A stretch of DNA of 64,000 bases from a virus: IMG/VR virus record IMGVR_UViG_3300028841_000327; one strand, 5' to 3'. Position 1 is the first letter of the stretch. Each line of letters opens with the position of its first letter. The notes under the pieces were generated by a model. The model was given only the letters and a program-made list of their open reading frames with translations, had not been told where the DNA came from and did not search any database. Both the position numbers and the translations under genes were made by a program. Below, one piece after another: positions 4,312 through 52,254 of the stretch.

Positions 4312-4387
4312 CCCGGTGAAGTTCGGCTGGGACCGATGGGTGGTTGTAACCCACTCGGCTAGTCAGGTTCGATTCCTGGCACCGGGA
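4312..4387 (+). tRNA. tRNA-Tyr(GTA)-like, short variable loop
   Basis: CCCGGTG/CACCGGG acceptor, loop TTGTAAC, T-arm TTCGATT. Confidence 0.6.
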
Positions 4388-4432
4388 CGAAAGGCATCAG
4401 ATGAAGCGCAAACCAACAAGCCGCATCGACGA

Positions 4433-4504
4433 GGAGGCGTAGTGTAGCGGCTGCACAGTGGGCTTTTACCCCATCAGGCGAGAGTTCGATCCTCTCCGCC
4501 TCCA
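4433..4504 (+). tRNA. tRNA-Lys(TTT)
   Basis: Cloverleaf, loop CTTTTAC. Confidence 0.85.
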
Positions 4505-4512
4505 CGGCACAC

Positions 4513-4585
4513 GGGTCCGAGGTGTAATGGTCGGCATAGCGAGCTCTTACCTCGACAGGAGGGGGTTCAATTCCCCCCGGACCCA
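4513..4585 (+). tRNA. tRNA-Lys(CTT)
   Basis: Cloverleaf, loop CTCTTAC. Confidence 0.85.
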
Positions 4586-4592
4586 CGATCAT

Positions 4593-4667
4593 TGGGGATT
4601 CGCCAAACGGCTAAGGCACCGGTTTCTGAGTCCGGCACTGGTGGTTCGAGTCCACCATCCCCAACCA
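4593..4667 (+). tRNA. tRNA-Gln(CTG)
   Basis: Cloverleaf, loop TTCTGAG, CCA encoded. Confidence 0.9.
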
Positions 4668-4741
4668 CTCCCGCAAGGGAACCTGCTCTCTGACAACCTG
4701 AACTTTCATCCGATCGGCGTTGCAAGCGCCGCTCGGAAACT

Positions 4742-4818
4742 GTGGCCCTCGCACCTCTGGTGAGTGCAACCGGCTGTTAACCGGTCCAAGCAGGGTTCGA
4801 TCCCCTGGGGCTACGCCA
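4742..4818 (+). tRNA. tRNA-Asn(GTT)
   Basis: Cloverleaf, loop CTGTTAA, CCA encoded. Confidence 0.85.
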
Positions 4819-4819
4819 C

Positions 4820-4894
4820 GTCCCCTACGCCTACATGGTGAGGTGCCGCTTTCGTACTGCGGAGAAGCCGGTTCGATTCCGGCAGGGGGCTCTA
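4820..4894 (+). tRNA. tRNA-Thr(CGT)
   Basis: Cloverleaf, loop TTCGTAC. Confidence 0.75.
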
Positions 4895-4897
4895 CAC

Positions 4898-4971
4898 GGT
4901 CCGGAGGCGCAACGGGTTGCGCGCTTGGTTGAAACCCAGGAGGAGTCGGTTCGAGTCCGACCTGGACCACC
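4898..4971 (+). tRNA. tRNA-Phe(GAA)
   Basis: Cloverleaf, loop TTGAAAC. Confidence 0.85.
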
Positions 4972-5042
4972 GGGGTGTCGCACAGCGGTAGTGCTCGTGC
5001 TTTGGGTGCACGATGTTGCTGGTTCGATTCCAGTCACCCCGA
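4971..5042 (+). tRNA. tRNA-Pro(TGG)
   Basis: CGGGGTG/CACCCCG, loop TTTGGGT. Confidence 0.85.
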
Positions 5043-5049
5043 CGATCAT

Positions 5050-5126
5050 GGTGGTGTGAGGGAGCAAGAGAACCCGGCCGATTGTGGATCGGTCTTCGAC
5101 GGGGGCAGTACCCGTACACCACCCCA
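5050..5126 (+). tRNA. tRNA-His(GTG), variant T-loop GGCAGTA
   Basis: G-1/C73, loop TTGTGGA. Confidence 0.75.
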
Positions 5127-5128
5127 AC

Positions 5129-5199
5129 GTCCTTGCCGAAGGTCGGCGCTGGCACTCCTAAGGCCAAGCGACGCGGTTCGATTCCGCGCAGGGACGCCA
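5129..5199 (+). tRNA. tRNA-Arg(CCT), reduced D-arm
   Basis: Loop CTCCTAA, T-arm, CCA. Confidence 0.7.
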
Positions 5200-5200
5200 T

Positions 5201-5272
5201 GCCTCGTGATGCGACTGGGGTCGCAGGCCGCCTGTCTCGCGGTTGAGACGGGTTCAATCCCCGTACGAGGCG
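5201..5272 (+). tRNA. tRNA-Asp(GTC)
   Basis: Cloverleaf, loop CTGTCTC. Confidence 0.8.
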
Positions 5273-5348
5273 CTGGCTCCCGTGAGCCTCAACACGGGTG
5301 GTGCTCCGCCGGATCAGCACCGCGTGAAATCGCGACACCCCGGCCCAT

Positions 5349-5435
5349 GGAAGATGAATCGCTCAAGGGAGCGAGCCCGGTTGCTATCCGGTGCGGTGCT
5401 TCGGCACTGGGGTTCGAGCCCTCCGTCTTCCGCCA
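5349..5435 (+). tRNA. tRNA-Ser(GCT)
   Basis: Long variable arm, loop TTGCTAT, CCA. Confidence 0.85.
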
Positions 5436-5436
5436 C

Positions 5437-5508
5437 ACGGACGAGGCCATGGCGGCCGAGCGGTTTCCAACTCCGCGGGACCAGGTTCGATTCCTGGCGT
5501 CCGTGCCA
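5437..5508 (+). tRNA. tRNA-Gly(TCC), atypical D and anticodon arms
   Basis: Loop TTTCCAA, T-arm, CCA. Confidence 0.6.
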
Positions 5509-5597
5509 GCGCATGCCGAGGCTGCGTGACAGAGCGAGCGGCACCATCAAGGTCGCGAACGTGGGATCGCCAGCACGAGCCGCGCTCTGGTGATGAC

Positions 5598-5671
5598 GGG
5601 CTCGTAGCTTGAAGGGCAAGCACTTCGCTGGCAGCGAGGAGTCAGGGGTTCGATTCCCCTCGGGTCCACCA
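5598..5671 (+). tRNA. tRNA-Ala(GGC)
   Basis: G3:U70, loop CTGGCAG, CCA. Confidence 0.9.
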
Positions 5672-5676
5672 ACATC

Positions 5677-5758
5677 GCCGAGGTGGCGGAACGGCAGACG
5701 CAGCGAGCTCAAACCTCGCCGCCCACGTGGCATGCGGGTTCAACTCCCGCTCTCGGCA
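5677..5758 (+). tRNA. tRNA-Leu(CAA)
   Basis: Long variable arm, loop CTCAAAC. Confidence 0.9.
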
Positions 5759-5762
5759 CTTC

Positions 5763-5835
5763 GGGGAAGTCGTACAACGGAAGTACCACCGCTTTGCGAG
5801 CGGATGATGCCAGTTCGACTCTGGTCTTCTCCACC
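5763..5835 (+). tRNA. tRNA-Ala(TGC)
   Basis: G3:U70, loop TTTGCGA. Confidence 0.85.
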
Positions 5836-5897
5836 GCGACTTCGGTGAGCGGCCACGTGCGTTTCGCGCGTCGCTGCCTCATCGCTGTCGCGCTCCC

Positions 5898-5970
5898 GGG
5901 CTCGTAGCTTGAAGGGCAAGCACCTCGTTCGCAATGAGGAGTTGGGGGTTCGATTCCCCTCGAGTCCACC
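5898..5970 (+). tRNA. tRNA-Ala(CGC)
   Basis: Near-duplicate of the tRNA at 5598; loop TTCGCAA. Confidence 0.85.
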
Positions 5971-6044
5971 CAGCTGGCGTGACCACTTCGTTCGCGGGCG
6001 CCAACGTGCCGAAGAGCGGAGTGGTGGCGTCAGCTGGACCACAT

Positions 6045-6119
6045 GCCGGTCAGGTCCCCGTGGGGGGGCGCGTCCTTGGTACGGACGAGGGGCGGGTTCG
6101 ACTCCCGCGACTGGCTCAA
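6045..6119 (+). tRNA. tRNA-Thr(GGT)
   Basis: GCCGGTC/GACTGGC, loop TTGGTAC. Confidence 0.7.
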
Positions 6120-6290
6120 GCCACAATGCCGGGATGATAAGGCCTCGGTAAGCCTTGTGCGTTAGCGAAGTGGAAACGCACGCCGTCACCCGCGTCACGG
6201 AGCCCCAGGCGCGGGGATGGGGGTTCAACCCCTCGTTGGGTGGCTACGTGCCCTTCACGAGCCGGTCTGCGGACGCGCAGACCGTTCCCT

Positions 6291-6362
6291 GCGGGTGCGG
6301 CGCGATGGTCGCGCGCGGGCCTTCCAAGCCCTGAGGTGCCGGTTCGAGTCCGGTCACTCGCT
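6291..6362 (+). tRNA. tRNA-Gly(TCC)
   Basis: Cloverleaf, loop CTTCCAA. Confidence 0.85.
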
Positions 6363-6376
6363 CTGATGTTGGTCAC

Positions 6377-6406
6377 TTGACGGCATGGCCCGCACATGGG
6401 TAACTT
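6377..6406 (+). promoter_or_regulatory. sigma70-type promoter with spacer motif
   Basis: TTGACG-18-TAACTT. Confidence 0.55.
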
Positions 6407-6411
6407 CGGGC

Positions 6412-7005
6412 ATGTCCGAACCGAAGGTCCTGGGAGAAGTCATCGGCGACGCCATGGAGAAGATGGACGCTCCGGCGGACGTCATCGCCGGGATCCGAGC
6501 TGCGGCACAGCGGCACAGCCTGCCTCAGCGGCACTGCCCGCCTCACGCGACCGCGTGCGTGGTGCTGGTGCAGAAGGAAGGTGACCCGTCGGTCTGGATC
6601 GCCAAGGATCTCGCGCGGCCGTTCCGGATGGAGCGGGTCGTCCTCACGCTCAAGGTGGCTCGAGCGGCGCTGACGGGCAGCGAGTGGCTCGAGCAGATCA
6701 TGGTCGGCAAGACGGCGGTGCTGGCGGCCCCGTTGCCGCTCAGGGTCGTCGCAGGCCCGACGGACGAGATCAAGAGTCGCCTCACGCAGCAGGAGCTGGA
6801 GCTGGCGGCCGAGGGCCCCACCCAGCGGTGGCTCGAGGTCGCTGCGGAGGTCGATGCGGAGGTGGGCGCGATGCTGGGGGCGCTGATCGGTGGAGAAGAC
6901 TGGGCCGAGAAGGGGGACTCCATCGAGTTCCACTTCGACCCAGCATCCGCGTTGCAGATCGAGAACATGGCGCTGTTCGGCGCCGCAGTGGTGAAGGAGA
7001 GTTGA
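6412..7005 (+). CDS. Hypothetical protein
   Basis: ORF between tRNA clusters. Confidence 0.6.
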   Translation: MSEPKVLGEVIGDAMEKMDAPADVIAGIRAAAQRHSLPQRHCPPHATACVVLVQKEGDPSVWIAKDLARPFRMERVVLTLKVARAALTGSEWLEQIMVGKTAVLAAPLPLRVVAGPTDEIKSRLTQQELELAAEGPTQRWLEVAAEVDAEVGAMLGALIGGEDWAEKGDSIEFHFDPASALQIENMALFGAAVVKES

Positions 7006-7007
7006 CT

Positions 7008-7093
7008 GGAGGGTAATGCTCAGTGGCGGGCAACCGGTCTCGAAAACCGGGTCACGGTGAAACGTGGGGGTTCGACTCCTCTACCCTCCGCAA
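7008..7093 (+). tRNA. tRNA-Ser(CGA)
   Basis: Long variable arm, loop CTCGAAA. Confidence 0.85.
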
Positions 7094-7094
7094 T

Positions 7095-7167
7095 GCGTGT
7101 GAGGCCGACTGGTGAGGCACTTCCTTGCCAAGGAAGGACAGGACGGGTTCGATTCCCGCCACACGCT
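7095..7167 (+). tRNA. tRNA-Gly(GCC)
   Basis: Cloverleaf, loop TTGCCAA. Confidence 0.85.
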
Positions 7168-7169
7168 CG

Positions 7170-7445
7170 ATGGCCAACAAGTCCGATGGGTTGCTGCGCG
7201 ACCTCGTGAACGTGCTCGACTCGATCGAGCGGTGCAAGAGCTGCCAGCACCTGCTCAACGAGGAGGCGGCCGACGAGTGCCACCACGGGTCGCTCGAGCG
7301 GGCGCTGGGTCGCGCGAGAACGCACCTGGCGAGCGGCGTCCTGCGCGAGCTCGCCCCGGTAGACTCCTCCACGCTGGACGAGGCTGGGCCTTCTAAGCCC
7401 GCGCCGCCGGGTTCGATTCCTGGGGAGGGGGCGACGCACCCATAG
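7170..7445 (+). CDS. Small hypothetical protein; 3' end overlaps tRNA-Arg
   Basis: ORF with phage-like codon use in its first two thirds. Confidence 0.4.
   Translation: MANKSDGLLRDLVNVLDSIERCKSCQHLLNEEAADECHHGSLERALGRARTHLASGVLRELAPVDSSTLDEAGPSKPAPPGSIPGEGATHP
7364..7431 (+). tRNA. tRNA-Arg(TCT), degenerate
   Basis: CTCCTCC/GGAGGGG, loop CTTCTAA, T-arm. Confidence 0.6.
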
Positions 7446-7512
7446 GCTAGGTGGTAAGGCCACGCGCCTTTCAAGCGCGGGATGCTGGGTTCGACTCCCG
7501 CTGGGTGCACAA
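7436..7512 (+). tRNA. tRNA-Glu(TTC)
   Basis: Cloverleaf, loop CTTTCAA. Confidence 0.85.
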
Positions 7513-7513
7513 C

Positions 7514-7586
7514 GACGTGGTGCTCCAGAGAGCGCCGCGGTCTGCAAAACCGCGTAGATGGGGTGCAACTCCCCTCCACGTCTCCA
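7514..7586 (+). tRNA. tRNA-Cys(GCA)
   Basis: Loop CTGCAAA, U73, CCA. Confidence 0.75.
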
Positions 7587-7587
7587 C

Positions 7588-7662
7588 GGTCCCGTCGGCT
7601 AAGGGTCAGGCCACCGCTCTCTCACAGCGGAAATGGGGGTTCGACTCCCCTCGGGATCGCCA
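7588..7662 (+). tRNA. tRNA-Glu(CTC)
   Basis: Cloverleaf, loop CTCTCAC, CCA. Confidence 0.9.
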
Positions 7663-7760
7663 GCTCCTGCTCCGGTGCAAGAGGCACCTACCAGGAACCG
7701 TTCGGCCGAGCGGTTCTTGGACCAGGTCCCGAGCAGGCATGGTCTGAACATGAGGCGGCG

Positions 7761-8357
7761 ATGGCCGTTTCCGTGGACAGCATGGCACCATTTGCCCCCA
7801 CCGGTGGATCCGGCGCCGACACTACGAATGTTGGTTGCGGTCGTTCAATTCGACCTGGGGGTGCTACGATGCCGGGGATGGCCACCATGCCCGCCACCCC
7901 CTCCGCTGCTCTCGCCAAGAAGCCGATCCCGTGGGGGACCATCGCCCTCGTGGGTGGGTTCGCCGTCGGTGGCATCGTGCTCTACCGGGCCTACAAGAAG
8001 AAGCAGGCCGCTGGCCTCGGTGCGGCCGCCGTGCCGCCGAAGAAGAAGGTGACCACGGTGCCGACGGTCTCGCTGCCCAAGCCGAGCAAGCTGCCGGGTG
8101 GGGTGACGACGTCGCCGGGCGCCGAGCCAGTGCGGCCCCCGGGTGCGTACGGCCCGAGCCCCTCGAGCACGTCGGATGGCGCCGACGACTACAACGCCGG
8201 TGCGCAGGTGGGGCGTGCGGACGGCCTCGCGGCGATCGCGACGCTGAGCATCGACCCGTCGGCGAACCCGAGCGACCTCATGGTCCACTACGACACCGAC
8301 CAGTCCGATGCCTGGAAGAAGGGCTACAAGACGGCGTTCAACAACGCGATCGGCTGA
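7761..8357 (+). CDS. Membrane-anchored Pro-rich hypothetical protein
   Basis: TM WGTIALVGGFAVGGIVLY followed by KKK. Confidence 0.55.
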   Translation: MAVSVDSMAPFAPTGGSGADTTNVGCGRSIRPGGATMPGMATMPATPSAALAKKPIPWGTIALVGGFAVGGIVLYRAYKKKQAAGLGAAAVPPKKKVTTVPTVSLPKPSKLPGGVTTSPGAEPVRPPGAYGPSPSSTSDGADDYNAGAQVGRADGLAAIATLSIDPSANPSDLMVHYDTDQSDAWKKGYKTAFNNAIG

Positions 8358-8359
8358 GA

Positions 8360-8431
8360 CCCCCGTCCAGCGGCTCTGGCGCCGACCCTCCGAAGGTCGG
8401 GTAGGTGGTTCAACTCCACCACGGGGGGCCG
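8360..8431 (+). tRNA. tRNA-Arg(CCG), reduced D-arm
   Basis: Loop CTCCGAA, T-arm. Confidence 0.7.
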
Positions 8432-8501
8432 CAGGGAAGCCAAGAGGCTGGCTGGGGCCCATAACCCCGGCGACCAGGGGCAGTACCTGGCCCTGCATCC
8501 A
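8430..8501 (+). tRNA. Initiator-like tRNA-Met(CAT), variant T-loop GGCAGTA
   Basis: C1:A72 mismatch, GGG/CCC anticodon stem, loop CCCATAA. Confidence 0.7.
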
Positions 8502-8502
8502 C

Positions 8503-8573
8503 GGCTGCGTGTCTCGGAGACGGGCGCTCCTCATAAGGGTGACCACGAGGGTTCGACTCCCTTCGCAGCCACT
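8503..8573 (+). tRNA. tRNA-Met/Ile2(CAT), reduced D-arm
   Basis: Loop CTCATAA, T-arm. Confidence 0.7.
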
Positions 8574-8645
8574 GGGGTGTCCCTCGGAGGGCGTCTCGGC
8601 CTTGAACCGGGTATGCGTCTGGTTCGACACCAGCCACCCCAACCA
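8573..8645 (+). tRNA. tRNA-Gln(TTG), reduced D-arm
   Basis: Loop CCTTGAA, CCA. Confidence 0.65.
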
Positions 8646-8649
8646 CCAT

Positions 8650-8724
8650 CAGCCTGTAGCGCACTGGTAGCGCGCTCCCTTGGGGAGGGAGAGGTCGCGA
8701 GTTCGATTCTCGCCAGGCTGACCA
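8650..8724 (+). tRNA. tRNA-Pro(GGG)
   Basis: Cloverleaf, loop TTGGGGA, CCA. Confidence 0.9.
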
Positions 8725-8797
8725 ACGGCCCGCACATGGGTCGTGTATGGGTTGCAGAGCCCACCTCGAGCATGTAGGCTCGAGTTCGTGAACGAGA

Positions 8798-8869
8798 CGG
8801 CGTGTAGGCCAGTGGTAGGTCACTCGGTTCGGGACCGAGATTTCGGGAGTTCGATTCTCCCCACGCCGA
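8798..8869 (+). tRNA. tRNA-Pro(CGG)
   Basis: Cloverleaf, loop TTCGGGA. Confidence 0.9.
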
Positions 8870-8875
8870 CGACAC

Positions 8876-8943
8876 GGGACGCCCCTTGGAAGGGAGCATG
8901 CCCTCACACGGCGCGCGACAGGGTCCGATTCCCTGGCGTCCTA
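8876..8943 (+). tRNA. tRNA-Val(CAC), degenerate
   Basis: Loop CTCACAC, reduced D-arm, T-loop TCCGATT. Confidence 0.55.
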
Positions 8944-8944
8944 C

Positions 8945-9017
8945 GCACTGCTGGTCCTCTGGTAGAGGTCGCCCGTCTGATACGCGGGAGAGTTGGGTTC
9001 GATCCCCAAGCGGTGCA
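8945..9017 (+). tRNA. tRNA-Ile(GAT)
   Basis: Cloverleaf, loop CTGATAC. Confidence 0.85.
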
Positions 9018-9018
9018 C

Positions 9019-9089
9019 GCGAGTCGACGGTACGGTACCTGGTCTTCCTGACGCGAAGACTGCTCGGGGTTCGACTCCCCGGACTCGCA
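9019..9089 (+). tRNA. tRNA-Val(GAC)
   Basis: Loop CTGACGC, T-arm. Confidence 0.7.
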
Positions 9090-9091
9090 CG

Positions 9092-12451: not shown

Positions 12452-13137
12452 GCGAGCCCCTGACCGACGAGTACATCCAGCGGGAGATCGCCTACGAGCG
12501 CGCGTGCTTGGTCGCGCTCGGGCTCGACCTCGTGGGGAACGAGACCCTGGCCGAGGCTCGGGCCGAGTACAAGCGCGTGGCGGCGATGGACTGCGTGCCT
12601 CCCCTCGCCCCGTCGTGGCACAGCCGGGTCAAGTCGCGGCTGGCGAACTGGGCGGAGTGGGAGCGCGACCTGCCCAGCCCCACGACCAACAACCACTACG
12701 CCCACTGCGAGGCCTGTCGCGCCCGAGGTCTGGCCGAGAACACGCCGCCGCAGGTGCACCTCCACGGGCAGCACGGCAACCACGACGACGCCTACATCGT
12801 CGGCGACCGGAAGGGGCTGCTGCGGCTCGCGGAGGCCATCCAGACGGCCCTGGCAGGTCTGCACGACCAGACGCGCGGCCAGGGGGTGGCGGGCGTCACG
12901 GCCCGTGACGGGGAGGGTTACGCCATCTACGTGGTGGCCCTGTCGGAGGAGCGCTTCGCAGGCACCCAGCTGCCCTACCAGCTCCATGGAGCTAGCCCGC
13001 CCGCCCCCGGTCGGCCCCCGTGGAGCCTGGTCACCCACGCCCCGGACGAGAGAGTCTTGGACGACAAGGAATGGTTCCGGCACCCCGCGGTCGATGACCA
13101 CCGCCCGGTCCAGCAACAGAAGAAGGAAGACCGATGA
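12448..13137 (+). CDS. Hypothetical protein
   Basis: ATGA-coupled ORF. Confidence 0.55.
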   Translation: MSEPLTDEYIQREIAYERACLVALGLDLVGNETLAEARAEYKRVAAMDCVPPLAPSWHSRVKSRLANWAEWERDLPSPTTNNHYAHCEACRARGLAENTPPQVHLHGQHGNHDDAYIVGDRKGLLRLAEAIQTALAGLHDQTRGQGVAGVTARDGEGYAIYVVALSEERFAGTQLPYQLHGASPPAPGRPPWSLVTHAPDERVLDDKEWFRHPAVDDHRPVQQQKKEDR

Positions 13138-46403: not shown

Positions 46404-46856
46404 ATGCCGGAGGAGACCATCGGTACGAAGGCGGCCGCGTGGGTGGCCCGTGACCCCCACCGCATTCTGCGCAACGCCTGTCTCGAGGCGAAGGAGGAGT
46501 GTCCCGTCGGGACCTACTACGCGAACGTCGAAGACGCGCTCGAGGACATGCGCGAGTGGTTCAAGAAGTGGGCGCACCAGCTCTACTTCCCGAAGCTCGA
46601 CCAGCTCGCGAAGATCGCCATGGAGAACGGTTGGTGGCTCTGCACCAAGATCCAGATCGAGCATCGCGCACGGCCGCCCTACCCGATGATCATCCCGCAC
46701 GCGACGGTTTTCGTGGAGGCACGGACCGATGCGCCCGTCGGACCTCCGTTCGCGCTGGTTCCCTCGAGTCGGCACGGCGACCTCAAGCAGCAGCTGGTCG
46801 ACGAGGTGTGGCTCACTCTCGCGCTCGAACCGTGGCCCACGGCCTCGATCCGATGA
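46404..46856 (+). CDS. Hypothetical protein
   Basis: ORF. Confidence 0.5.
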   Translation: MPEETIGTKAAAWVARDPHRILRNACLEAKEECPVGTYYANVEDALEDMREWFKKWAHQLYFPKLDQLAKIAMENGWWLCTKIQIEHRARPPYPMIIPHATVFVEARTDAPVGPPFALVPSSRHGDLKQQLVDEVWLTLALEPWPTASIR

Positions 46857-47764
46857 TCGACGCGCCCTTCCCCTGGTACGGAGGCAAGTCGCTGGCGGCC
46901 CCGGCGATCTGGGACGCGCTGGGCGCCAACGTGGGGCACTACGTCGAGCCCTTCGCCGGGTCTCTCGCGACCCTGCTGGGTCGTCCAGGGGGTCCGGGGG
47001 TCATCGAGACGGTCAACGACAAGGACGCGCTGATCGCGAACTTCTGGCGGGCCGCGGCAGCCAACCCCGAGGAGCTGGCGAAGAAGGTCGACTGGCCCGT
47101 GAACGAGGCCGACCTCCATGCGCGGCACCTGCGCCTCCACGAGCGTCACGAGGCGATCCGCGAGGAGGTGATGACCGACCCGCACTTCTACGACGTCACG
47201 GCGGCGGCGTGGTGGGTCTGGGGGCTCTGCCAGTGGATCGGTGGTACGTGGTGCGACGGGAAGAAGCCGCGCCGCCAGCTGCCCAAGCTCGCCTCCCAGA
47301 ACGGGGTGCTCCGCAAGCGGACGGGACGCAGCGAGCTCGTCCAGTGGTTCTCCGACCTCCAAGCGCGCCTGCGCCCGGTTCGGGTGGCGTGCGGGGACTG
47401 GACGCGCGTGGTCACGGACAGCGTCCTCTTCTGCCAGCAGAACGGTGCGGCGACGACCGTCGGTGTGCTCTTGGACCCTCCCTACGCGAAGGGGGACATG
47501 GACTACGCGGCCGGAGGCGTGGGCGGCGCGCTGGCGGAGGACGTCCGGAAGTGGGCAGTCGAACGCGGGGAAGACCGCCGCCTGCGCATCGTGCTCTGCG
47601 GGCTCGAGAGCGACCACGAGATGCCTACGGGCTGGCGCAAGGTCCTCTGGTCGGCGAAGAACGGTTCCCGCGGCGTCCGCTCGAACGGCCAGAGCGAGTG
47701 CCTCTGGCTCTCCCCTCACTGTCTCGGCAACCGTCAGCCCACCCTGTTCCAAGGATTCCTATGA
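46853..47764 (+). CDS. DNA adenine methyltransferase (Dam/D12-like)
   Basis: PFPWYGGK, YVEPFAGS, ETVND, LDPPY. Confidence 0.9.
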   Translation: MIDAPFPWYGGKSLAAPAIWDALGANVGHYVEPFAGSLATLLGRPGGPGVIETVNDKDALIANFWRAAAANPEELAKKVDWPVNEADLHARHLRLHERHEAIREEVMTDPHFYDVTAAAWWVWGLCQWIGGTWCDGKKPRRQLPKLASQNGVLRKRTGRSELVQWFSDLQARLRPVRVACGDWTRVVTDSVLFCQQNGAATTVGVLLDPPYAKGDMDYAAGGVGGALAEDVRKWAVERGEDRRLRIVLCGLESDHEMPTGWRKVLWSAKNGSRGVRSNGQSECLWLSPHCLGNRQPTLFQGFL

Positions 47765-48761: not shown

Positions 48762-49430
48762 ATGCCGTTCAAGGTCGGACCCGATGGCAAGCAGTTGCGT
48801 GGCCTGGCCTGCGTGCCCCCCGAGGAGCGCAAGAAGATCGCGAGCAAGGGGCAGAAGGCAGCTCGAGCGAAGGGCGGCTGCTACCAGTTCGACCACGAGA
48901 CGGCGGTCCGAGCGGGCCACAAGGGTGGGGCAGCTCCGAAGCGTCGCTTGAAGACGATCGAGGAGATCACGGAGCGGACGGAGGTGGCGATCGCCTCCGC
49001 GAAGCACGACGCGAACGAGATGCGCCGTCTGATCGGCACCATCGCGGAAGAAGTCGCCGAGGTCGAGCAGATGGCGGCGGCCGCCGAAGGCCGTCCAGTC
49101 TCGCCCGAGCAGGCGGCCGCGGCGGAGGATGCGCTTGTCAAGTGGACCCGTGGGCAGCTCCCAGCGCCGGTGGTGACCGCGCTCGGCCGCTTCGGTGGAG
49201 CTCAGGACGAGTTCGCGCGTCAGGCTCGGGTGGCCGAGAAGCTCCGCCAGCAGCTGGCCGAGGTGCAGCGTCGCTCTGCGATGGAGGGCGCGCCTCCGAG
49301 TCCGGCCGTGGAGACGCAGGCGATCGCGCGCGACGTCGCCAAGATGGAAAAGGCGATCGAGGCGACGCCTCCGTCGCAGTCGGTCTCGCTGTTCCGTCGC
49401 CTGATGGGTGGCCTCTCGAACGTCGACTGA
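48762..49430 (+). CDS. KGG-repeat (general stress protein-like) domain fused to a helical domain
   Basis: PEERKKIASKGQKA....G..YQFD.E.A.RAGHKGG. Confidence 0.7.
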   Translation: MPFKVGPDGKQLRGLACVPPEERKKIASKGQKAARAKGGCYQFDHETAVRAGHKGGAAPKRRLKTIEEITERTEVAIASAKHDANEMRRLIGTIAEEVAEVEQMAAAAEGRPVSPEQAAAAEDALVKWTRGQLPAPVVTALGRFGGAQDEFARQARVAEKLRQQLAEVQRRSAMEGAPPSPAVETQAIARDVAKMEKAIEATPPSQSVSLFRRLMGGLSNVD

Positions 49431-49433
49431 GTC

Positions 49434-49727
49434 GTGGGGAACGGGGAGGAAGAGGGCGACTCGCCCATCGAGCGACTGGCGAGGCTGCTCGAGCGGGCGG
49501 GAGCGCGGGTGACGCTCGACCACGAGCGCAGCACCGCTCGCCCGTGCTTCTTCTGTGGAGCCACGGCGGTGCGTCGTGACCTTTGCAAGGTTGGCGTCTG
49601 GGCAGAGGACCGCCGAGGCAACGTGCGTCGCGGCGACCCCATCGAGCGGCCCGTGTGCGCCGGTTGCCAGGTGGCACATATGGGTAGTTGTGGACCATGC
49701 GAGAACGCCGGTGATCCGAAAAAGTGA
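49434..49727 (+). CDS. Small Cys-rich protein
   Basis: CFFC...CAGC..H..C..C. Confidence 0.35.
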   Translation: MGNGEEEGDSPIERLARLLERAGARVTLDHERSTARPCFFCGATAVRRDLCKVGVWAEDRRGNVRRGDPIERPVCAGCQVAHMGSCGPCENAGDPKK

Positions 49728-49786
49728 GGCGGCGCTCGCAATGACCCTTGCGCGTTGGTAGAGCGTGATCTACTAGTGATCTCTGT

Positions 49787-49870
49787 CGGCGAACTGCGGT
49801 CGCCGTAACTCGAGGTCGTGGTTCACGGCACTCGAGAACCATCTTCGGATGGACCTCTCGCAATGCGAGA
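49787..49870 (+). ncRNA. Four-hairpin structured RNA or leader preceding the array
   Basis: CGGCGA/TCGCCG; CTCGAGGTCGTG/CACGGCACTCGAG; CCATC-TTCG-GATGG; TCTCGC/GCGAGA. Confidence 0.55.
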
Positions 49871-49908
49871 CGTAAGCCCACAACATTGCTGATGTGATTC
49901 GGTTACCT

Positions 49909-51171
49909 GTTGAGCGGCCTGCGTGGTGTGTGGATTCGTTCAGGCGCGCAGACCAGCACCCAGCGTACGCCCACCCGTTCCGTTGAGCGGCCTGCGTGGG
50001 GTGTGGATTCGTTCAGGACCTGGGGTCCGGTGCGGAAGGTCCGCTCGCCGCTTGGTTGAGCGGCCTGCGTGGTGTGTGGATTCGTTCAGGGCCCGACAGC
50101 TCTTCTGGGTCGCGGCCTGCGCTGTGGATTCGTTTGAGCGGCCCGCGTTGTGTGGATTCGTTCAGGGCGATCACATCGTCGACCAGCTTCTCGCGTGGTG
50201 TGGATTCGCTCAGGGCTCTGCGCGAACGAAGCTCGTTCAGGGGGGAAGGCCGACAGTTCTTCTAGGTCGCGGCCTGCGCGGTTGTGGATTCGTTCAGGGC
50301 CATGACCTAGACCAGCTCGCGGGTTGAGCGGCCTGCATGGTGTGTGGATTCGTTCAGGGCCACTCGGTCACCTCGTCAACCATTGCCTGCGTGGTGTGTG
50401 GATTCGCTCAGGGGCCTTCTCGTGTATGGCGTCCGGTTCCCAGTGAGCGGCCTGCGTGGTGTGCGGCGGATTCAGGTTCGCGCTCTTGGCCAGCGTCCGC
50501 ACGAAACTCGCCGGTTGAGCGGCCTGCGTGGTGTGTGGATTCGTTCAGGGGGAGCGGCTGCGAGCCCCGCGTGAAGTCGATGGCATGTTGAGCGGCCTGC
50601 GTGGTGTGTGGATTCGTTCAGGCAGCCTGCGTGGTGTGTGGATTCGTTCAGGCTCGAACTTCACGCTCGTTCGCAGGCCCGCGCTGTCGGTTGAGCGGCC
50701 TGCGTGGTTCAGGGTCATGCCGTCGCTGTCGTTCAGGAACTGCGTGCACGATGCCGGTCCTCTTGCGTGGTGTGTGGATTTGTTCAGGCACGACACCTGA
50801 CACAGTACCCAGCTCGACTGCTGAGTGGCCTGCGTGGTGTGTGGATTCGTTCAGGCTGGCGGGCCACCGACGGCTCGATCACGACGCACGACGCAGGAGG
50901 GCGTCCACGAATAGGCTCTGGACTTCGGGGTGCGTGGTGTGTGGATTTCGTTCAGGTGGCGCGACGTGAGCCCGCCTTCGCCCCATGTGGATTCGTTCAG
51001 GCCTCGAGCGCGATGGTTTACGGTCAGGCTCAATGGCGAACACCCCTGGAGTTTTTAGCGGCCTGCGCGGTGTGTGGATTGGTTCAGGCCCACTGGCTCT
51101 GCGGAAAAACGCCATAGCGTTGTTGGGCTGCGTTCGTTCAGGAGTACGTCTAGGGTAGCGGCCTGGTCAGG
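49909..51171 (+). CRISPR. Orphan CRISPR-like array, repeat GTTGAGCGGCCTGCGTGGTGTGTGGATTCGTTCAGG (36 bp), progressively degenerate
   Basis: Full repeats at 49909, 49982, 50055, 50323, 50514, 50587; 37-bp unique spacers at 49945, 50018, 50550, 50653; about a dozen truncated copies; no cas gene in the window. Confidence 0.85.
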
Positions 51172-51722
51172 GAGGGGACGCTTCGATGGATGACCGCAGG
51201 AGCCCCGCCGGGATAGCCTTGTGGAGGATCGTCAGGACGTCGCGATGCAGTCCACCTCCGATTGTGTGTCGATCGTAGGGTGTCCGCTCAGGCTATCTTG
51301 CCTCACGAAGATTCGCGCAGGGTCGTCGCGCACATGCTGGGTCGCCCAAGGGCTCTGCGTCAGGGGTCGCGGGTTCCTGTAGATGCAGGCGCAACGGCCA
51401 GGCCAATCCGATCTGCGTGTGTGGGGTTCTCAGGGCGAAGGCGCACTACCGCAGGGACCGCTGACCCCGGAGCTCGAAGCGCAGGTGACGGAGTCACGGA
51501 TCTTGGGCGAGCGGGCCTGAGGTTCTACGCACGTGCGGTACACAGCAGGGGTCCGGGCCAGTTCGCCGATACGTGCAGGACCCGCCAAGGCGTTGCGAGC
51601 AGGACACGCGCGCGCAGGTTGTACGTGACCGCTAGGCAGGGCACCAGTATCAAGCACATGGCAGGTGGACGAATCACGGCTTGGCGGGCTAGACCGCGGC
51701 CTGATTCACAAGACCCCGCAGG
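51172..51722 (+). repeat. Vestigial array extension with recurring CAGG
   Basis: CAGG mostly every 20-36 nt; remnants such as CTGCGTGTGTGGGGTTCTCAGG at 51413-51434. Confidence 0.6.
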
Positions 51723-51747
51723 TCGTAGCCTCGTGTCTCCGCAGCGC

Positions 51748-52254
51748 TCAGCCGCTGACGAAGTCGCGAATCTCGGCAGGGCCGAGGCCAGACAGTGCCC
51801 CCACGACGACCCAGTGTCGTGCGCGTGGGTCACGAGTCGGGATGGTCGCCAGCTCGGGGTTCGCCTCGGTCAGCTCGTCGTAGAGTCCGTCCACCAGCAC
51901 CTGCCGCTCGAGGTGGTCGCCCGCCTCGGCGAGCGCCATCTGGGCGCGGTCGGCGTCCACTGGGGAGACCGACAGGTGGTAGTGGTGCGACCCCATTGCG
52001 ATGGACGGGCGGCCGCGAGGCGCCCAGCGTCGCACGAGGTCGAGCCACAGCTCACGGTCAACCCGGAACGGTGTCCTGGTCGCCTGAGGGTCACAGTTCG
52101 CGCATGCGCACCCCACGGGGTGATGCACGACCAGCTTCTGGAGCAACGGCATCGTGAGCCCGACAGCCGCGAGTGCGGTGACGACCATGGAGTCGATCTT
52201 GGCGTCGGCCGCCACCTGGACGCCGAGGGCAGAGAGCTCGTCGAAGCGGGTCAC
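51748..52254 (-). CDS. Hypothetical protein
   Basis: ORF converging on the array. Confidence 0.5.
   Translation of the reverse strand: MTRFDELSALGVQVAADAKIDSMVVTALAAVGLTMPLLQKLVVHHPVGCACANCDPQATRTPFRVDRELWLDLVRRWAPRGRPSIAMGSHHYHLSVSPVDADRAQMALAEAGDHLERQVLVDGLYDELTEANPELATIPTRDPRARHWVVVGALSGLGPAEIRDFVSG

Follow-up and report, generated by a model that had tools for sequence, protein, structure and literature searches.

An eroded tail at the leader-distal end of a cas-less CRISPR-like array in phage DNA

What kind of element repeats the same four bases 19 times within less than 600 nt of non-coding viral DNA? The question is raised by positions 51139-51722 of a 64,000-nt stretch of viral DNA (IMG/VR record IMGVR_UViG_3300028841_000327; the whole stretch is called the window here), in which the tetranucleotide CAGG recurs at short intervals immediately downstream of a CRISPR-like array. 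A preliminary description had proposed an ultra-compact guide array in which the repeat is reduced to its terminal CAGG. Here we identify 51143-51722 as the aged end, farthest from the leader, of a CRISPR-like, cas-less array running from 49909 to 51722. The eroded array tail is real; that it works as an ultra-compact guide array is unproven.

The CAGG-rich stretch and the array upstream of it

All 19 copies of CAGG lie exactly where the preliminary description had placed them, and 51139-51722 holds no further copy. The window as a whole contains 332 CAGG, or 3.0 per 584 nt (standard deviation (sd) 2.5 in sliding windows), in line with the three to four copies that had been expected from base composition. 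Its densest 584-nt segment has 19 copies, a value attained solely at 51139-51722. Among the 256 tetramers, CAGG ranks first in over-representation (19 against 2.7 from the rest of the window; z 9.9), and in 5000 dinucleotide-preserving shuffles of the stretch the copies averaged 6.4 (sd 2.15) and never exceeded 15. The enrichment is strand-specific, with just four copies of the reverse complement, CCTG, in the stretch. The base 5' of CAGG was G in 12, T in 5 and C in 1 of the 18 copies scored, and T precedes six copies when the left-edge one at 51139 is counted. Since G or T precedes nearly all copies, the true motif is (G/T)CAGG. GCAGG was observed 12 times against 2.4 in shuffles, and the other flanking positions of the 19 tail copies carried no information; A follows in five of the 19 (CAGGA).

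The distance from one CAGG to the next ranges from 13 to 64 nt. Twelve of the 18 spacings fall within 21-36 nt, as had been described, and just two are below 21 nt. This is more even than random placement (coefficient of variation (CV) 0.44, P = 6e-4). Regularity in the stricter sense was absent: no strict period was found in the tail, where a 29-nt signal (R = 0.5) was gone at 29.5 and 30 nt, and no helical phasing was seen, the Rayleigh test giving p 0.39 for 10-10.5 bp and 0.43 for 11 bp.

A coding explanation was ruled out. The plot of G+C content at third codon positions (GC3) by frame is flat over ~49600-51700, so that the motif is explained by no gene, and the spacings are not multiples of 3; this agrees with the earlier view that no credible open reading frame (ORF) covers the stretch. 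Seven separate Logan assemblies repeat the tail with 0 mismatches, starting at positions from 50594 to 51092 and all running to 51747; over 49431-51747, a contig from JGI (L012) also matches the window exactly. Because these eight independent assemblies are identical, and because the variant tail of a related strain (L008, below) recurs in two further samples, the tail sequence is not an assembly artefact. We give practically no credence to chance, base composition, a hidden gene or mis-assembly as the source of the motif: the general G+C richness of the DNA, and nothing more, speaks for such an origin, and the shuffles, the tetramer rank, the missing coding signal and the identical assemblies led us to reject it.

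In the array proper (49909..51142, plus strand), CAGG forms the 3'-terminal 4 nt of the repeat. This array has a 36-nt repeat, 37-nt spacers and a period of 73 nt, and comprises 24 repeat copies, equal to 23 CAGG-bounded units; the copy at 49909-49944 served as the reference repeat. Six or seven of the window copies are intact over 36 nt and one further copy has a single change. Fully intact copies number about ten over the arrays of the window and L008 (four of them in L008), to which one variant-repeat copy is added by a more distant relative, L013. The other repeats of the array proper mostly lack the 3' part of the spacer together with the 5' part of the repeat, and a small number show substitutions or repeat-internal deletions. 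Matched at two mismatches or fewer, the 3' 16-mer of the repeat occurs 15 times, always on the plus strand and always within 49929-51088. Spacers are 37 nt long wherever both bounding repeats are intact, and they are mutually unrelated save for one duplicated spacer-plus-repeat unit (50091-50166 and 50242-50298). Repeats, constant unique spacers and a polarised turnover, described below, make the locus a CRISPR array in the structural sense.

The repeat itself folded no better than shuffles on either strand. CGCAGG, a hexamer of the tail, is the exact complement of CCTGCG in the 5' half of the repeat, and L008 has units in which both arms are fused into the palindrome CCTGCGCAGG. Five contigs of one Nitriliruptoria metagenome-assembled genome (L037, L041, L061, L066 and L073) carry an unrelated repeat of 63-nt period that has only an 11-nt core in common with the repeat studied here.

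Rightward along the array the share of shortened units rises, and the tail is the far end of this gradient. It consists of 18 short units of 13-64 nt (51143..51722, plus strand), each ending in the (G/T)CAGG motif and recognised through orthologous units in L008 and L013. Constant spacer length fails here, the spacer remnants measuring 9-60 nt. The three repeat intermediates quoted in the preliminary description are all present in the tail; remnants of the repeat 5' core and middle persist even among its last units, and those at 51486 and 51666 retain bits of the 5' core. Cutting at every CAGG from 49945 to 51722 yields 41 units, or ~42 repeat ends. Beyond the final CAGG, 25 nt remain before the stop codon of the right flanking gene (51723..51747, plus strand); in L013, a further CAGG comes after the orthologous segment. 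A standard CRISPR finder would pick up just the first third of the locus.

Strain variants and array-less relatives

Relatives of the locus were fetched by exact-protein look-up with the 168-aa protein encoded to the right of the array and with its cluster members. The locus was recovered in three versions, namely that of the window and L012, which are identical, that of L008 and that of L013; contigs of other runs hold further strain variants. L008 is a 97%-identical strain on a 125,688-bp contig, and its flanking genes differ from those of the window by 1.7% at first, 0.2% at second and 8.9% at third codon positions. The leader and repeat 1 are the same in both strains, the first five leader-proximal units differ, and the tail is largely shared; in the middle, strain-specific units are interspersed in a shared backbone. 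Judged by this contrast between a shared tail and differing leader-proximal units, the array is shown to grow or turn over mainly at its left (leader) end, and the tail appears as its oldest part. Strain-specific units occur inside the array too, and in L008 a duplicated 21-nt tail unit with CAGG at its end follows immediately on another CAGG.

In several tail units common to both strains, the repeat is better preserved in L008, which reads ...TGTGTGGAGAATTCGTCAGG, for instance, where the window reads ...TTGTGGAGGATCGTCAGG at 51219-51236. The same tail and layout were found in L013, which has 84% nucleotide identity in the 168-aa gene and the same gradient with a variant repeat. Its gene-proximal units are 14-43 nt long and end in GCAGG, and the units that follow end in ...GTTGCTCAGG; L013 combines a younger repeat variant of its own with a GCAGG tail that it has in common with the window. 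In the window, the unit 51293-51321 reads GATTCGCGCAGG where the current repeat has GATTCGTTCAGG. This unit and the GCAGG tail of L013 indicate that the GCAGG ending of the tail is an older repeat variant, with CGCAGG in place of TTCAGG. The claim that the stretch continues the upstream array was therefore borne out, both by the identity of CAGG with the repeat end and by the related genomes.

More distant relatives (L267-L269, 50-56% protein identity) have no array. In them, the homologue of the 222-aa gene to the left of the array directly faces that of the 168-aa gene, and the two convergent genes are 100-150 nt apart. No significant proto-repeat was found in these array-less relatives (P = 0.05-0.97), and no relatives of the neighbouring genes were found in IMG/VR. 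At the spot that corresponds to the array, L269 (620-680, minus strand) carries two copies of CGCGCAGTGATT, 30 nt apart. The pair recalls the CGCAGG tail motif and its ~30-nt spacing, and its likeness to the repeat is not significant.

The L269 pair would also suit a reading outside CRISPR, in which the stretch is an array of DNA- or RNA-binding sites (iterons, a centromere-like site or a CsrB-like sponge) or a diverged 30-nt minisatellite. We regard such an origin as very unlikely. It would explain why a dense, strand-specific, loosely regular short motif lies in non-coding DNA adjoining a helix-turn-helix gene, and the sponge RNAs CsrB and RsmZ likewise present ~20 short motifs at irregular 15-60-nt spacing in a non-coding RNA. 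CsrB-like sponges have many GGA-core motifs, mostly in hairpin loops. Here, however, the motif is (G/T)CAGG, just five of the 19 copies read CAGGA and so contain the GGA core of CsrA sites, and the units are decayed repeat-spacer units. Iteron or centromere-like arrays consist of identical sites of about 10 bp or more that are in phase with the helix or evenly spaced, and would not be expected to lack helical phasing, to have only five informative bases and to be spaced at 13-64 nt. Moreover, the short units pass gradually into complete 36-nt repeats whose 37-nt spacers are unique, their orthologues keep longer remnants, and the sequences between motifs are unique rather than diverged copies, save for a few local duplications.

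One-sided erosion, its possible causes and known counterparts

The erosion of the units is strongly one-sided. Over the window, L008 and L013, 71 CAGG ends lack the repeat 5' core in the 34 nt upstream, whereas at most three repeat 5' cores lack a CAGG end (really one, the other two being chance matches inside spacers; binomial p = 7e-18). The sole window repeat without its CAGG end lies at 50115-50137. The ungapped repeat suffix that was kept measured 4 nt in 42 of 102 units and 5 nt in 17 of 102, with other lengths thinly spread. Each of ten clean truncations, measured by eye, is one contiguous deletion of 16-49 nt over the junction between spacer 3' part and repeat 5' part; repeat-internal deletions with both ends kept are found at 50678-50713, 51089-51142 and 51143-51171. 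When unbiased deletions were simulated in an array of 73-nt period until 584 nt remained, ~7 end markers were left, with a maximum of 13 and never 19, independently of the starting size. This showed that unbiased deletion cannot lift the density of CAGG from one per 73 nt to one per 31 nt.

The shortened units also share a lower size limit. Among the short-tag units, 28 of 47 are 21-30 nt long and 5 of 47 are under 21 nt. Pairs of orthologous units agree for 13-23 nt past the previous CAGG and then diverge, with breakpoints clustered 17-23 nt after CAGG. One and the same unit can have different deletions in different strains, each of which spares the CAGG end and the first ~18 nt. When L013 was compared locally, and without bias, with both other arrays, five of the six shared non-repeat segments consisted of CAGG and the next 11-21 nt. 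Wear always spared the final 4-6 nt of the repeat and ~17-25 nt of the spacer after it, which hints at a minimal functional unit but falls short of proving one.

We favour the explanation that the tail is the old end of a cas-less array in which deletions spared the junction of repeat 3' end and spacer 5' end as the part that mattered, and we give it about an even chance of being right. Each unit was once a 37-nt spacer with a 36-nt repeat. Deletions of 16-49 nt over the spacer-3'/repeat-5' junction shortened it, and after repeated rounds only the (G/T)CAGG end of the repeat, 4-6 nt long, is left with the first 17-25 nt of the next spacer. In CRISPR types I, III and V, the 5' tag of the CRISPR RNA (crRNA) comes from the repeat 3' end and the guide begins with the 5' part of the spacer; the 3' part of the spacer and the 5' part of the next repeat are trimmed or dispensable in these types. 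The spared piece corresponds to the tag and guide start of this layout, and by analogy past selection on a crRNA core is our preferred explanation for the shape of the tail. The core would comprise the tag and the first 17-20 guide bases; deletions outside it may have been tolerated, and those that struck it may have been purged or have fused units. The most eroded units, with a tag of only 4-5 nt, are probably no longer loaded by any effector and would be fossils that now turn over whole by small insertions and deletions (indels). A simpler reading is that of a fossil tail that records past constraint or an integrase-linked deletion bias.

Several results weigh against past selection in a CRISPR array. 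No cas or effector gene was found among 46 ORFs of the 64-kb window scanned with Pfam, PHROGs or PADLOC, the other 40-60 kb of the 105-126-kb genome lying outside the search, and none among the genes called in the 10-kb loci around the array in L008, L012 and L013. Protospacers had been suggested as a means of checking the guides; no significant match was found in phage or plasmid collections and, for three leader-proximal spacers, none in IMG/VR, the search not extending to same-sample metagenomes. The repeat had no match to the Rfam CRISPR-DR families even at E = 5. In exact and pattern searches for a related repeat in GTDB genomes, JGI metagenome contigs and IMG/VR, the matches listed were either chance or 15-nt coding repeats of pentapeptide-repeat genes. 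Unchanged positions between the window and L008 amount to 65% in CAGG, 68% in the following 15 nt and 75% in the rest, so that no extra conservation of CAGG or its prefix was seen between the two, and the differences between them are mostly indels of 17-60 nt that add or remove whole units. Furthermore, L013 and the window have their common units in different orders, which is not what simple vertical descent of a CRISPR array predicts; the reordered units would need duplications and losses, of which examples exist, or independent gains. Finally, the present data do not separate selection from a mechanistic deletion bias.

A bias of this kind, with no selection on RNA, would arise if a host Cas1-Cas2 integrase acted at internal repeats of the phage-borne array, which we think rather unlikely. 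In one variant, aborted half-site integrations at the leader-side border of the repeat would be repaired with deletions centred on the spacer-3'/repeat-5' junction. In the other, the leader-side cut would be mis-measured and the spacer-side cut fixed after CAGG, so that units would be born with a 5'-truncated repeat. Either way, CAGG would survive as the mark of a fixed cut site. The ten truncations fit this proposal well, all ten being single contiguous deletions over the junction concerned, and so do the strain-specific units along the whole array, among which the 21-nt CAGG unit of L008 placed after another CAGG would fit an ectopic insertion. In the same sense speak full-length 38-nt spacers whose repeat is cut internally or to CAGG alone (50856-50897 and 51089-51142) and the lack of extra conservation of CAGG and its prefix at short range. 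According to the passages of PMC6698737 that cite its refs 45 and 46, integration attacks both repeat borders, with repeat-internal motifs as rulers that fix the two cut sites, and mutation of these motifs leads to wrong-sized repeats; its mention of ref 51 (Nivala 2018) concerns off-target integration that can seed new arrays. We count the wrong-sized repeats and the seeding of arrays in favour of an integrase. However, most of the truncated repeats follow shortened spacers (2-32 nt), which truncated birth does not fit unless later deletions are added, and repair would often overshoot CAGG, yet the kept suffix piles up at 4-5 nt. In addition, no integrase is known for this repeat, and the array-less relatives offer no significant proto-repeat.

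Under either cause, the decay pattern can be read as a natural deletion scan, in which the part that could not be lost is the last 4-6 nt of the repeat and ~17-20 nt of the next spacer. If selection set the limit, it would point to the crRNA layout and the minimal guide length of an unseen effector; if an integrase did, the tail would be a record of how spacer-side cutting is anchored.

The preliminary description went further and took the short units to be live. A plus-strand transcript would be cut at or near (G/T)CAGG by an RNase or an unknown effector into RNAs of ~21-30 nt, each a 4-5-nt tag with a guide of at least 17 nt, and phage or host machinery would make and use these RNAs with almost no repeat scaffold. 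In a related reading, an integrase would insert pieces of ~25 nt at CAGG with a 4-5-bp duplication. We consider live units quite improbable. They would account for the one-sided erosion, the floor at ~21 nt and the under-dispersed spacing, and equally for CAGG-plus-prefix modules that are kept across 84%-identical lineages and for breakpoints 17-23 nt after CAGG. RNA evidence, which consists of unstranded Logan contigs of one metatranscriptome run, lends some further support. An 86-nt contig over 49853-49938, from the leader to repeat 1, has ~4x the depth of the flanking genes, and its right end is a forced branch point of the 31-mer graph. A second contig, from an L008-type strain, covers 51621-51792, taking in 127 nt of the tail together with the final part of the 168-aa gene, and has at its left end 10 extra letters that begin with CAGG; each of the two is a single contig of low depth. 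Yet the second contig continues unbroken through three further CAGGs.

Other observations also speak against live units. Strains of 97% identity gain and lose such units freely and show no extra conservation, and the searches made found no effector, targets or anti-repeat for them. When duplexes with an anti-repeat or trans-activating CRISPR RNA (tracrRNA) were sought over the whole window, the best of 49,628 windows reached a z of -4.0, which is chance level, and lay within a coding gene. No crRNA handle known to us is as short as a tag of 4-5 nt, and we know of no effector that works with one. The idea of an ultra-compact guide array was thus upheld as to the continuation of the array, for which the longer L008 remnants speak, and not as to functional guides, for which effector, anti-repeat and protospacer were all missing from the results. 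Self-targeting was also considered and rejected, as the best matches between spacers and the window, 19/20 at 18906 and 18/19 at 12498, are within the decoy range: they were equalled by 2 and 16, respectively, of 30 shuffled decoy sets.

The closest known kind of element is the virus-borne cas-less array (PMC11656645), likewise a phage repeat-spacer array with no cas gene nearby and with strain-variable spacers; the kind includes mini-arrays in phages and archaeal viruses and the cas-poor loci of large phages known from metagenomes. By analogy, the array presumably depends on a host system, as viral cas-less arrays do. Known viral mini-arrays have one or two spacers, repeats identical to those of the host, and spacers that match related viruses (PMC11656645). 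In contrast, this array has ~42 repeat ends, a repeat that is private among the collections searched, mostly eroded units, and spacers with no match to its own 64 kb or to related DNA. Cas-less phage arrays are known mostly as tiny copies of host arrays; the present one is long, has a private repeat family, belongs to an uncultured phage lineage and was recovered in three natural variants.

Ordinary CRISPR arrays have one or a few mutated terminal repeats. At their trailer ends, as here, decay is greatest in the oldest repeats, those farthest from the leader, and different strains have the tail in common. Here, however, ~30 units are eroded; the loss is one-sided, is due to deletions and not to substitutions, always spares the 3' end of the repeat and compacts the spacing from 73 nt to ~30 nt. 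Neo-CRISPR arrays, which reportedly were seen in an E. coli overexpression setting, have to our knowledge not been seen in phage genomes. As far as they are described where PMC6698737 cites Nivala et al. 2018, neo-CRISPR loci likewise have a repeat that belongs to no known family and lie, like the present array, at an intergenic spot that is array-free in distant relatives; the array-less relatives here differ in having no significant proto-repeat. RNA anti-CRISPRs (Racrs), which are solitary repeat units, and viral crRNA-like RNAs are also phage-encoded and repeat-derived and do not require cas genes of their own. Racrs imitate the entire repeat of the host and do without spacers (PMC10651486; bioRxiv 10.1101/2024.10.29.618823), whereas the tail keeps 4-6 nt of the repeat, its spacers are many and unique, and no similar repeat was found in the collections searched.

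Leader, flanking genes and genome context

The array lies in a 2.3-kb non-coding gap between convergent genes, the plus-strand genes ending at 49430 (perhaps 49727) and the minus-strand stop codon being at 51748. On the left, a 222-aa gene without known family (an ORFan) converges on the array (48762..49430, plus strand; GC3 0.84), and its product is 37% identical to a 225-aa gene product of L267. On the right is the 168-aa gene, also an ORFan (51748..52254, minus strand; GC3 0.85). Translation suggests a possible Cys-rich ORF of 97 aa with three CxxC pairs between the left flanking gene and the leader (49434..49727, plus strand). This candidate has a GC3 of just 0.74, was not called by gene callers in L008 or L012, and had no Pfam or PHROG match.

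Upstream of the array, folding predicts a run of four hairpins, called the leader here (49787..49870, plus strand). The element is conserved in L269 (L269:640-740), and one stem shows a compensatory change from U-A to G-C between the window and L269; the predicted fold of the whole 206-nt leader stretch has a z of -1.6. Since the hairpins are kept in a relative that has no array, the element pre-dates the array. It is more likely a terminator or an independent non-coding RNA between convergent genes than an array-specific tracrRNA or scaffold. A degenerate repeat-like segment, GATGTGATTCGGTTACCTG, stands directly before repeat 1 (49887..49908, plus strand) and can in part be aligned with intergenic DNA of L269. 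A search for a sigma-70-like promoter of the array gave none.

DNA nearly identical to the window was found in bioreactor and activated-sludge metagenomes of many studies from 2017-2025, and related contigs from bioreactor and sludge samples reach 105-126 kb. A cultured-phage collection had nothing similar to the window, and atlas look-ups of two large ORFans gave no lead. The window looks like part of a phage genome with a G+C content of ~67%, in which most ORFs are without family. Domain matches comprise a DnaB helicase, DUF5131, DUF1643, an ADP-ribosylglycohydrolase, an endonuclease PHROG, and FHA, ThiF and D12 methyltransferase domains. ARAGORN called 29 transfer RNA (tRNA) genes, 20 of which were confirmed by Rfam at the gathering threshold, in three clusters (4312-9090, 26010-26200 and 33060-33221); one of the ARAGORN calls (33060-33143) has a 4-base anticodon. 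The D12-class N6-adenine DNA methyltransferase domain is encoded at 46499-47764 on the plus strand, ~2 kb upstream of the array and on the same strand, in an ORF whose real start is probably near 46860.

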